From NCBI GenBank assembly GCA_000165345.1, contig CM000433.1:576001-640000 (forward strand): a stretch of 64,000 bases of DNA, read 5' to 3'. The notes beneath the pieces are model-generated. The model was not told the origin of the DNA and made no database searches. It saw nothing but the letters and a program-made list of their open reading frames with translations. This document shows, piece after piece, positions 62,492 through 64,000 of this stretch. Made by a program: the position numbers and the translations under genes. Numbering within the stretch: the first letter of the stretch is position 1; every line of letters begins with the position of its first letter.

Positions 62492-64000
62492 ATGGATTTG
62501 GAGTTGAGAAGATATTATAATGATTTATTGTACAAAGCAGAGAAAAAAGAGAATGATAAGGATGATAAGAATATTATGAATGGAAGAATGATGTATAATT
62601 TAGTAATTGGAAATAAAAGTGCTGATTTGGTAAGTTAAAATTAGAAATTTATTTTTTTTCAATAATTGAATTAATTTTAAATAATTATTAAAATAAAGGA
62701 TTCAATAGTTTCAGCAATTACATATTCAAGAATATTAAATTTGATTAATAATACAATAAATTTTGATGAAAATAATAAAATATATGGAATACATTTACCA
62801 GTAATAAATTGCAATAGAAATGAATTAAAATTAAAGTTTCCATTAATTGCTTTAATAAATTATTTCTCAAATAATCAAGATAATGATTCAGGAGATGATT
62901 TTCAAATTGAAAATATGCCATTTATATGTTTAGATGATGATATAATTAATGAATTGATACTTGAGATGGAGAAATTAGATAATGAAAAAAAACATGTAAA
63001 TTTTGGGCATTATATAACATTGGTTGATCATAATACATTGGATACATTTCAAAAGAAGTAAGTTTAATAATTAAAAAAAAAAATTCTATCAATTAATTGA
63101 TAATTAAATTATTTTATTAATATCAGTTTTAATGAAAGAGTGGTTTCTATTGTGGATCATCATCAAGATTACATGACTACAAAGTCAAATTATAGATTAT
63201 CATTGGGAACTAATATAGGAAGCTGTTCAACATTAATTGGAAAAATTGTAAGTTAAAATTAAACTTGAGAAATTATTTTTTATTAATTTAATATGTAAAA
63301 ATTTAATTCAAGTGGAGAGATTCTTATGAAAAAGGAAAGATAAATCAACAAACTTTGATAGAAAATAAAATATTTCTCGAGATGATTGTTTGTACAATAT
63401 TAAAAGGTAGGTTTTATTAAAATAATAATAAGTTCGAATTTTTATTATTGTGATATTAAATATATATATACTATTTTAGATACTTGTAACTTTAACCAAA
63501 AATTATCAGGAAAAAGATGGAGCTCTTTAGATTTGGAAGTTTATAATTGGATAATAGAAATATTATCTTTAATAGAAAAAAATAATGAAGAAATCATAAG
63601 TAAAAAGTACACTGATTTATATATAAATTTTTTAAAGAATGCTAATCGAAATATAGATATAATATTTAATAATGAACTTATTGAATTATTTAAAATGGAT
63701 TACAAAGATTTTATTTACAATAATAAATTTGGAAATGAAGTTGTTATTATTGGCTATTCCAGTTTTGAAATTGATTTATTAGAGATAATAAAACATTATA
63801 AAGAGAATTTTCAAACAGATATTAAGAATTTTATATTAAATAATAAATTAAATTTATTTATAATTTTAAGTAATTATATATATAAAACAGAAGATCATCA
63901 AAATGAAGAAATGAAAAAAAAAATAATTATTTCATATATTAATAATGATCACAGTCAAGTTCAAAATCTTCATAATCTTGTAATTAAATGCTTAGAAACA
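62492..64000 (+). CDS. DHH-family phosphoesterase (prune / exopolyphosphatase PPX1-like), 5' part; predicted five exons
   Basis: The predicted structure is join(62492..62629,62699..63057,63127..63247,63313..63406,63480..>64000). Introns 1-3 begin with GTAAGT and intron 4 with GTAGGT. All four end in AG and are 65-73 nt long. Splicing reconstitutes DHH motif I across the exon 1/2 junction (VIGNKSADL|DSIVSAI; compare prune GNESCDLDS). It also gives LVDHN (motif II) and VVSIVDHHQD (motif III). The frame stays open to the window end. Confidence 0.7.

Follow-up and report, generated by a model that had tools for sequence, protein, structure and literature searches.

The 64,000-nt stretch of DNA analysed here (the window) ends in a gene that raises two questions: what does it encode, and why does it carry four introns in a genome where introns are scarce? 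An earlier note made from this DNA had described a five-exon gene for a DHH phosphoesterase of the PPX1/prune type, and had suggested that such a high intron density could be the mark of a gene acquired recently or evolving differently. We consider it highly probable that the locus is the 5′ 89% of CPHLJ_5g2845 / CPCDC_5g2845, a gene of Cryptosporidium parvum for a PPX1/prune-type DHH + DHHA2 phosphoesterase, and that its introns are ancestral.

The unspliced frame of the ATG at 62492 meets a stop after 48 codons, and the unspliced reading is stop-rich. Once four GT...AG introns are removed, the spliced ORF runs for 411 codons without a stop and reaches past the end of the window. The exons and introns are as follows:

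62492-62629, plus strand: exon 1, 138 nt, encoding M1 to L46 and terminating within DHH motif I (GNKSAD45-L46)
62630-62698, plus strand: intron 1, 69 nt, GTAAGT...AAAG, phase 0, 9% GC
62699-63057, plus strand: exon 2, 359 nt, from D47 to the first two bases of N166
63058-63126, plus strand: intron 2, 69 nt, GTAAGT...TCAG, phase 2
63127-63247, plus strand: exon 3, 121 nt, carrying motif III and the GSCST motif
63248-63312, plus strand: intron 3, 65 nt, GTAAGT...CAAG, phase 0
63313-63406, plus strand: exon 4, 94 nt, from W207 to the first base of the D238 codon
63407-63479, plus strand: intron 4, 73 nt, GTAGGT...TTAG, phase 1
63480 to beyond 64000, plus strand: exon 5, 521 of its 677 nt in the window, encoding the linker and the DHHA2 domain (MD311YK313, GYSS)

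The four short introns that had been proposed, three opening with GTAAGT and one with GTAGGT, were recovered with exactly these donors and with sizes of 69, 69, 65 and 73 nt. Their removal restores a single open frame for a conserved protein, in keeping with spliceosomal GT-AG introns. Intron 1 lies between L46 and D47 and splits motif I, as had been noticed, and the junction of exons 1 and 2 restores GNKSADL|DS. The junction of exons 2 and 3 is in phase 2, ten residues upstream of VDHHQD, and in the spliced reading it leads into that motif, again as described. Intron 4 interrupts the D238 codon, which specifies the motif IV aspartate (ILK|DTCNF), a feature absent from the earlier note, and two of the four introns are thus within catalytic motifs. 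Motif II (LVD156HN) is found in exon 2 at 63026-63028 and motif III (D176-H177-H178) in exon 3 at 63155-63163.

The introns have a lower GC content than the exons (9-14% versus 18-28%), the lengths of two of the four are not divisible by three, and read-through gives many stops. Three of the nine plus-strand GTAAGT sites of the whole 64-kb window are donors of this gene, within 620 nt. All four junctions are contained in the IOWA-ATCC model QOY41718.1, and the introns of that annotation are stated to be 100% supported by RNA-seq (PMC8744675). The clean 411-codon ORF, the public 463-aa, five-exon records and the conservation of the introns across Cryptosporidium indicate that the five-exon splice model is correct, as had been argued from the restored motifs.

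GenBank already contains this gene with its five exons and its product: public C. parvum records hold an identical protein, identical DNA and the same splice model. The spliced translation is 100% identical over 411 residues to KAL5368715.1 (CPHLJ_5g2845) and WKS77939.1 (CPCDC_5g2845), both members of the 90% cluster of the top protein-search match. These two genes have five exons and encode 463 aa, and the window's spliced translation agrees with protein P0010 at every residue. At the DNA level, positions 62492-64000 have no mismatches in 1509 nt against the complete chromosome-5 assemblies CP029784.1 and CM109965.1. When the 463-aa protein was mapped to both of these records with exact splicing, the same four introns, a 677-nt exon 5 and a TAG stop were obtained. 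Further ORFs of the window match C. parvum IOWA-ATCC CP044418.1 (chromosome 5) exactly, which places the window on chromosome 5 of C. parvum. The full gene covers 1668 nt in the complete record, with exon 5 at L001 10989-11665, and the window ends 156 nt short of the stop codon; the remainder of exon 5 comprises the last 52 codons, with the SRKKLEP motif and the TAG stop. Two older C. parvum models of the gene, QOY41718.1 and WRK32431.1, differ in being 3′-partial (336-337 aa). Literature searches on cgd5_2845 and on Cryptosporidium exopolyphosphatase found no paper on this gene.

Both domains of the protein were detected with Pfam. DHH (PF01368) scored 34.3 bits on the window-encoded part and 33.9 bits on the full-length protein (threshold 28.1). 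DHHA2 (PF02833) scored 29.6 bits on the full 463 aa (threshold 27) and 25.8 on the window-encoded part alone, which lacks the last 52 residues and so falls under the threshold. Word-indexed protein searches, with a single sequence or a profile, returned Cryptosporidium sequences plus a few weak matches, and outgroups were reached by an exhaustive profile search, which yielded 1048 relatives. This was the sole PPX1/prune-type homolog recovered from Cryptosporidium in these searches. The best match of a profile of the Cryptosporidium orthologs was yeast PPX1 (PDB 2qb6; 2.4e-20, profile positions 28-372), and family II pyrophosphatases followed at 2.8e-7 and weaker. The spliced protein aligns to PPX1 across all four junctions and well past motif I, with the end of exon 1 opposite PPX1 GNESADMDS, so that the alignment proposed as a check of the gene runs as anticipated.

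In an alignment of 69 sequences (A3), the invariant columns are D45, D47, S48, P80, D156, D176, H177, H178, S198, D255, D311 and K313, and the nearly invariant ones are N41, L154, H157, G197, D238, R446, K447 and P451; the C. parvum protein keeps all of them. DHH motifs I (D45/D47), II (D156), III (D176-H177-H178) and IV (D238) are therefore all present, as are the DHHA2 substrate-side residues D311-x-K313, GYSS, R446, K447 and P451, the last three of which are encoded beyond the window. The structure was predicted using AlphaFold2 with this alignment (pLDDT 91, pTM 0.91), which replaced a 7-sequence Cryptosporidium alignment that gave too poor a model (pLDDT 56.7). A Foldseek search of the model against the PDB placed PPX1 structures first (E 9.5e-22, TM 0.74), followed by family II pyrophosphatases (~1e-12 to 1e-13) and then by GdpP, NrnA and RecJ, with NrnA and RecJ at 1e-5 or weaker. 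The closest solved relative is PPX1 by sequence and by fold, ahead of other DHH branches. Two Pfam domains over threshold, together with PPX1 as the best match in sequence and in predicted fold, indicate that the protein is a PPX1/prune-type DHH + DHHA2 phosphoesterase, in agreement with the initial identification. The dN/dS of the spliced frame, 0.18 between C. parvum and C. ubiquitum, indicates that this frame is under purifying selection.

The nearest competing assignment is to the family II inorganic pyrophosphatases. These enzymes have a DHH + DHHA2 architecture and LVDHN / DHH motifs in common with the Cryptosporidium protein, they form the second tier of the fold matches, and the protein matches NCBIfam NF003877 at 2.6e-10. 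However, that match amounts to 40.2 bits against a curated equivalog cutoff of 283, so the protein does not belong to the NF003877 family. PPX1 is ahead of the family II pyrophosphatases by ~13 orders of magnitude in sequence and by ~9 in fold, and the Cryptosporidium protein has its C-terminal SRKKxxP motif and its insertions in common with the eukaryotic PPX1/prune set. We therefore regard a family II pyrophosphatase as quite unlikely, although pyrophosphate could even so be among the substrates.

In DHH/DHHA2 enzymes, as seen in the structures of PPX1 and family II pyrophosphatases, aspartates and histidines of the DHH domain bind two divalent cations. The phosphate chain is bound in the cleft between the domains by serines and basic residues of DHHA2, and the terminal phosphate is released. 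As a PPX1/prune-type phosphoesterase, the C. parvum protein would be a cytosolic, divalent-metal-dependent enzyme in which D45, D47, D156, D176-H177-H178 and D238 (motifs I-IV) would act as the metal ligands of the DHH domain. The DHHA2 domain (D311-x-K313, GYSS and S-R446-K447-K) would close over the phosphate-chain substrate. The likeliest substrates would be short-chain polyphosphate and/or pyrophosphate, probably hydrolysed from the chain end as in yeast PPX1. We infer both activity and substrate from homology, at an identity to PPX1 of ~18-20%. Other activities have also been assigned to members of the prune branch, and the energy metabolism of Cryptosporidium is heavily pyrophosphate-dependent.

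Public models of the ortholog group range widely in length (234, 308, 336, 337, 348, 355, 418, 432, 433, 447, 461 and 463 aa). Part of this disagreement involves a short element within exon 5:

63762-63803 or 63762-63805, plus strand: cryptic GT...AG pair in exon 5, 42 or 44 nt, taken as a fifth intron in some public models

The pair is used by the C. tyzzeri (447 aa) and C. hominis (337 aa, P0009) models. Because public models differ at the 3′ end (336, 337, 447, 461 and 463 aa), an alternative isoform is possible. A stronger form of this reading holds that the true product is a truncated, DHH-only protein of ~336-337 aa, made by way of a frame-shifting fifth intron of 44 nt, or that the locus is decaying. 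The GT...AG pair at 63762-63805 is indeed present, and the C. hominis model and the C. parvum models labelled partial stop at GYS.... Against this, the cryptic donor GT is absent from four other lineages (C. canis, C. xiaoi, C. felis and L007), which have AGC rather than AGT, and the peptide encoded at the pair, GYSSFEI, is invariant between species. L007 is a Cryptosporidium-like contig of 45% GC from a Logan assembly. In C. parvum, C. hominis, C. felis, C. ryanae and L007, the DHHA2 residues further downstream, including SRKKLEP, are conserved as far as the natural stop. Furthermore, the full-length fold is confidently predicted (pLDDT 91), and the dN/dS of 0.18 argues against truncation and decay alike. 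We find a truncated product or a decaying locus very unlikely, and the 63762..63805 pair is most likely coding sequence.

In C. felis, C. ryanae and L007 the last exon stays open as far as a conserved FSRKKLxP C-terminus, and the extra fifth introns of the C. ubiquitum, C. canis and C. xiaoi models are mutually different. These comparisons indicate that the conserved structure of the ortholog group is five exons and about 460 aa. The models of C. felis (308 aa), C. ryanae (234 aa), C. xiaoi (348 aa), C. hominis (337 aa) and C. tyzzeri (447 aa) appear to be truncated or mis-spliced, and the same applies to the C. parvum entries labelled partial and to the C. ubiquitum and C. canis models at their 3′ ends.

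How unusual is this intron load? An RNA-seq-based re-annotation of C. parvum reported 688 introns in 3865 genes, with introns in 10.8% of genes; intron-bearing genes have 2-10 exons (mean 2.6), and introns average 99 nt and 22% GC (PMC4637869). With four introns in a 1.39-kb CDS, the DHH gene has ~2.9 per kb, ~30 times the genome mean of ~0.1 per kb. Its intron density is high for this genome, as had been pointed out, and its intron number is in the upper tail yet inside the range of the re-annotation. The observation that nearly all other genes of the window are intronless also holds: judged by span against product length, 17 of the 18 other genes in the public annotation at window positions ~257-44800 are intronless. 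The one exception is as follows:

26745-28672: gene encoding 560 aa, whose single intron (245 nt, GTAAGT...AG) follows a signal-peptide-like first exon

The window as a whole has a GC content of ~25-30%, and long uninterrupted ORFs cover about three-quarters of it. We considered the 116-nt gap between the giant ORFs at 47111-54019 and 54135-62108 as a further intron and rejected it as a frameshift artefact, because a 1-nt indel relative to a newer assembly splits a continuous ORF of >3200 codons. The window has one extra base compared with that assembly, inside ambiguous bases (11, at 53978-54009 and 54134).

Comparison of the spacer upstream of the DHH gene revealed one conserved element:

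62236-62330, plus strand: conserved upstream non-coding block, 160-255 nt before the ATG, near-identical in C. parvum, C. ubiquitum and C. canis

Outside this block, the spacers of these three species do not align. The block contains TGCATGCATGCA, the inverted repeat CTTACGTG..CACGTAAG, TTGCGCAAAATTTGCAC and ATGCCGGTAT. In the window, TGCATGCA was found 13 times (0.54 expected) and ATGCCGGTAT with at most one mismatch 10 times (1.0 expected), both almost entirely in intergenic DNA. The TGCATGCA motif has been described as the binding motif of the C. parvum AP2 proteins cgd2_3490 and cgd1_3520 (PMC4117751). Because TGCATGCA is a known AP2 target in C. parvum, the block is most simply read as a promoter, and likely is one. 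An Rfam scan of 61900-64000 matched no RNA family.

To place the introns in time, we compared their positions among Cryptosporidium orthologs and with the chromerid Vitrella brassicaformis; the earlier note had called for such a comparison with other apicomplexans. C. parvum shares the same four introns, in phases 0, 2, 0 and 1, with seven further Cryptosporidium lineages. In C. ubiquitum, C. canis and C. xiaoi, exact spliced mapping put each of them at an unchanged residue and phase, and tblastn with inspection of the DNA identified them in C. felis, C. ryanae and L007. Their lengths range from 45 to about 300 nt across Cryptosporidium, and their positions are constant. Between-species intron identity from global alignment is inflated by free gaps, above all for intron 1, and was not used. 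In all loci with a recovered upstream flank (C. parvum, C. ubiquitum, C. canis, C. xiaoi and C. ryanae), the gene is flanked by a VPS13-like gene of ~4800-5000 aa on one side and a minus-strand gene of ~550-640 aa on the other.

The Vitrella ortholog (L013) has 15 exons and 14 introns. All four Cryptosporidium introns coincide with Vitrella introns in position and phase:

Vitrella intron 1: GDL|DS, phase 0, equivalent to Cryptosporidium intron 1
Vitrella intron 4: 10 residues before the Asp of DHH, phase 2, equivalent to Cryptosporidium intron 2
Vitrella intron 5: after the GSC.TL motif, phase 0, equivalent to Cryptosporidium intron 3
Vitrella intron 6: in the Asp codon of IL.DT, phase 1, equivalent to Cryptosporidium intron 4

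Given 14 introns and ~1215 sites, the chance of four matches out of four is ~1e-8 for exact positions and ~1e-6 with one codon of slack. Since the four positions and phases recur in Vitrella introns 1, 4, 5 and 6, we conclude from this single outgroup and its computational gene model that the introns are ancestral and older than the split between apicomplexans and chromerids. Homologs from Aspergillus caelatus and from a bacterium (L009) were tried as further outgroups and set aside; both are intronless and so uninformative on intron age. Names were checked for ten top-ranked clusters from outside the genus, of which two are chromerids (Chromera and Vitrella); the best-scoring match outside Cryptosporidium is a eukaryotic transcriptome sequence. 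The chromerid homologs point to vertical descent of the gene. The homology searches surfaced no ortholog from the gastric species C. muris and C. andersoni and recovered no genomic orthologs from gregarines, coccidians or haemosporidians.

Recent acquisition of the gene, or recent gain of its introns in Cryptosporidium, might be read from the ~30-fold intron density and from the strong E-values that Cryptosporidium proteins alone reached in the word-indexed search, but is scarcely credible given the conserved synteny within the genus, the introns kept in seven other lineages, the four-out-of-four match to Vitrella, the chromerids among the closest named homologs outside the genus, and the fact that a bacterial donor would bring no introns, the one bacterial homolog inspected (L009) being intronless. 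The synteny, the genus-wide introns, the Vitrella match and the dN/dS of 0.18 likewise speak against intron density as a sign of a differently evolving gene. This part of the earlier reading is reversed, as the sequence comparisons indicate introns that are old and retained, not new.

With ancestral introns, the Cryptosporidium lineage would have lost ~10 introns relative to Vitrella, namely introns 2 and 3 plus every one of the eight located 3′ of motif IV. Such 3′-biased loss, with a 5′ cluster of four kept, would fit recombination with 3′-primed, incomplete cDNA copies. Roy and Penny reportedly described, in 2006 and 2007, large-scale intron loss in apicomplexans together with a cDNA-recombination model. 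That the few introns of Cryptosporidium are mostly retained ancestral ones is an established rule. A further idea is that the four 5′ introns were kept because they are needed, for example for intron-dependent expression or regulated splicing, and that the 42/44-nt element of exon 5 switches the gene to a truncated DHH-only isoform. Such a switch would explain why RNA-seq-guided public models disagree, but we think this reading as a whole unlikely.

As the gene, protein and five-exon structure were in GenBank beforehand, the discovery value of the locus is small. The analysis adds a corrected view of several mis-modelled Cryptosporidium orthologs and a clean single-gene case of introns retained at the 5′ end and lost at the 3′ end, with all four retained introns common to Vitrella.

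Among known systems, Saccharomyces cerevisiae PPX1 (PDB 2QB6/7/8) has the same two-domain DHH + DHHA2 fold as the Cryptosporidium protein. The two share motif I (GNxSADxDS), the DHH of motif III, motif IV (ILxDTxN) and the DYK and SS motifs of DHHA2, although overall identity is only ~18-20%. They differ in motif II, which is LVDNN in PPX1 and LVDHN in Cryptosporidium, and in length, the Cryptosporidium protein being longer with extra loops at ~100-115 and ~140-150. The Aspergillus homolog, the fungal one inspected at the DNA level, lacks introns altogether. Bacterial family II pyrophosphatases, such as that of B. subtilis (1K23), have the same DHH + DHHA2 architecture and metal-binding motifs, but the match to them is much weaker. 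Metazoan PRUNE1 and Drosophila prune belong to the same DHH + DHHA2 subfamily and were retrieved as relatives of the chromerid orthologs; human PRUNE1 has a C-terminal extension and additional reported activities and interactions. The DHHA2-domain protein of V. brassicaformis CCMP3155 (P0045; CDMY01000176.1) shows ortholog-level similarity to the C. parvum protein in every motif, at ~27% protein identity, and its gene has 14 introns compared with four in Cryptosporidium.

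Two motifs, TGCATGCA and AT(G/A)CCGGTAT, are repeated in the spacers between genes of the window, often side by side, and the sites are as follows:

62236-62330: motif block of about 95 nt upstream of the five-exon DHH phosphoesterase gene
2826-2885, 8329, 17101, 31156-31174, 36577, 36984, 46531 and 46830: other motif sites

Among C. parvum, C. ubiquitum and C. canis, the block upstream of the DHH gene, which also contains the inverted repeat CTTACGTGGAAACACGTAAG, shows stronger conservation than the coding sequence.

Within the annotated portion of the window, a single gene other than the DHH gene has an intron:

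26745-28672: intron-bearing gene for a 560-aa protein
26745-26798: its short exon 1, with a hydrophobic product
26799-27043: its 245-nt GTAAGT...AG intron

Because this intron contains two copies of TGCATGCA and one of ATGCCGGTAT, it looks like promoter sequence, as judged from its motif content. A start codon further downstream may be an alternative for this gene.

The pair of spacer motifs also occurs once within coding sequence: in the giant VPS13-like gene, the upstream neighbour of the DHH gene, ATACCGGTAT is followed directly by TGCATGCA (54813-54830). This occurrence could be due to chance or could be an internal promoter. The VPS13-like gene appears broken:

47111-62108: giant VPS13-like gene, about 4978 aa
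47111-54019 and 54135-62108: two ORFs into which it is split

Eleven ambiguous bases (N) are present at 53978-54009 and 54134, and in this region the window carries 1 nt more than newer C. parvum assemblies do. The Ns and the 1-nt insertion jointly break the gene into two ORFs, and this sequence comparison shows the split to be an assembly artefact. It also points to an older C. parvum assembly as the source of the window. For the same reasons, an intron between the two ORFs was rejected.

At the other end of the window, GC content is 44% over positions 1-2000, compared with 25-33% in the remainder, and this GC-rich stretch coincides with a 737-aa ORF (213-2426).

In at least seven species, public models of the DHH gene ortholog are truncated or differ from one another at the 3' end. 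The sites concerned are the cryptic GT...AG pair in exon 5 (63762-63805) and five orthologous loci (L003, L004, L005, L006 and L010), and none of the models for C. ubiquitum, C. canis, C. xiaoi, C. felis or C. ryanae includes the conserved C-terminus ...FSRKKLEP.... The DHH gene is also present, with an identical set of four introns (intron 1 being approximately 300 nt) and a matching downstream neighbour, in a Cryptosporidium-like organism with a far higher GC content (L007, Logan contig from SRR31860986, 45% GC).
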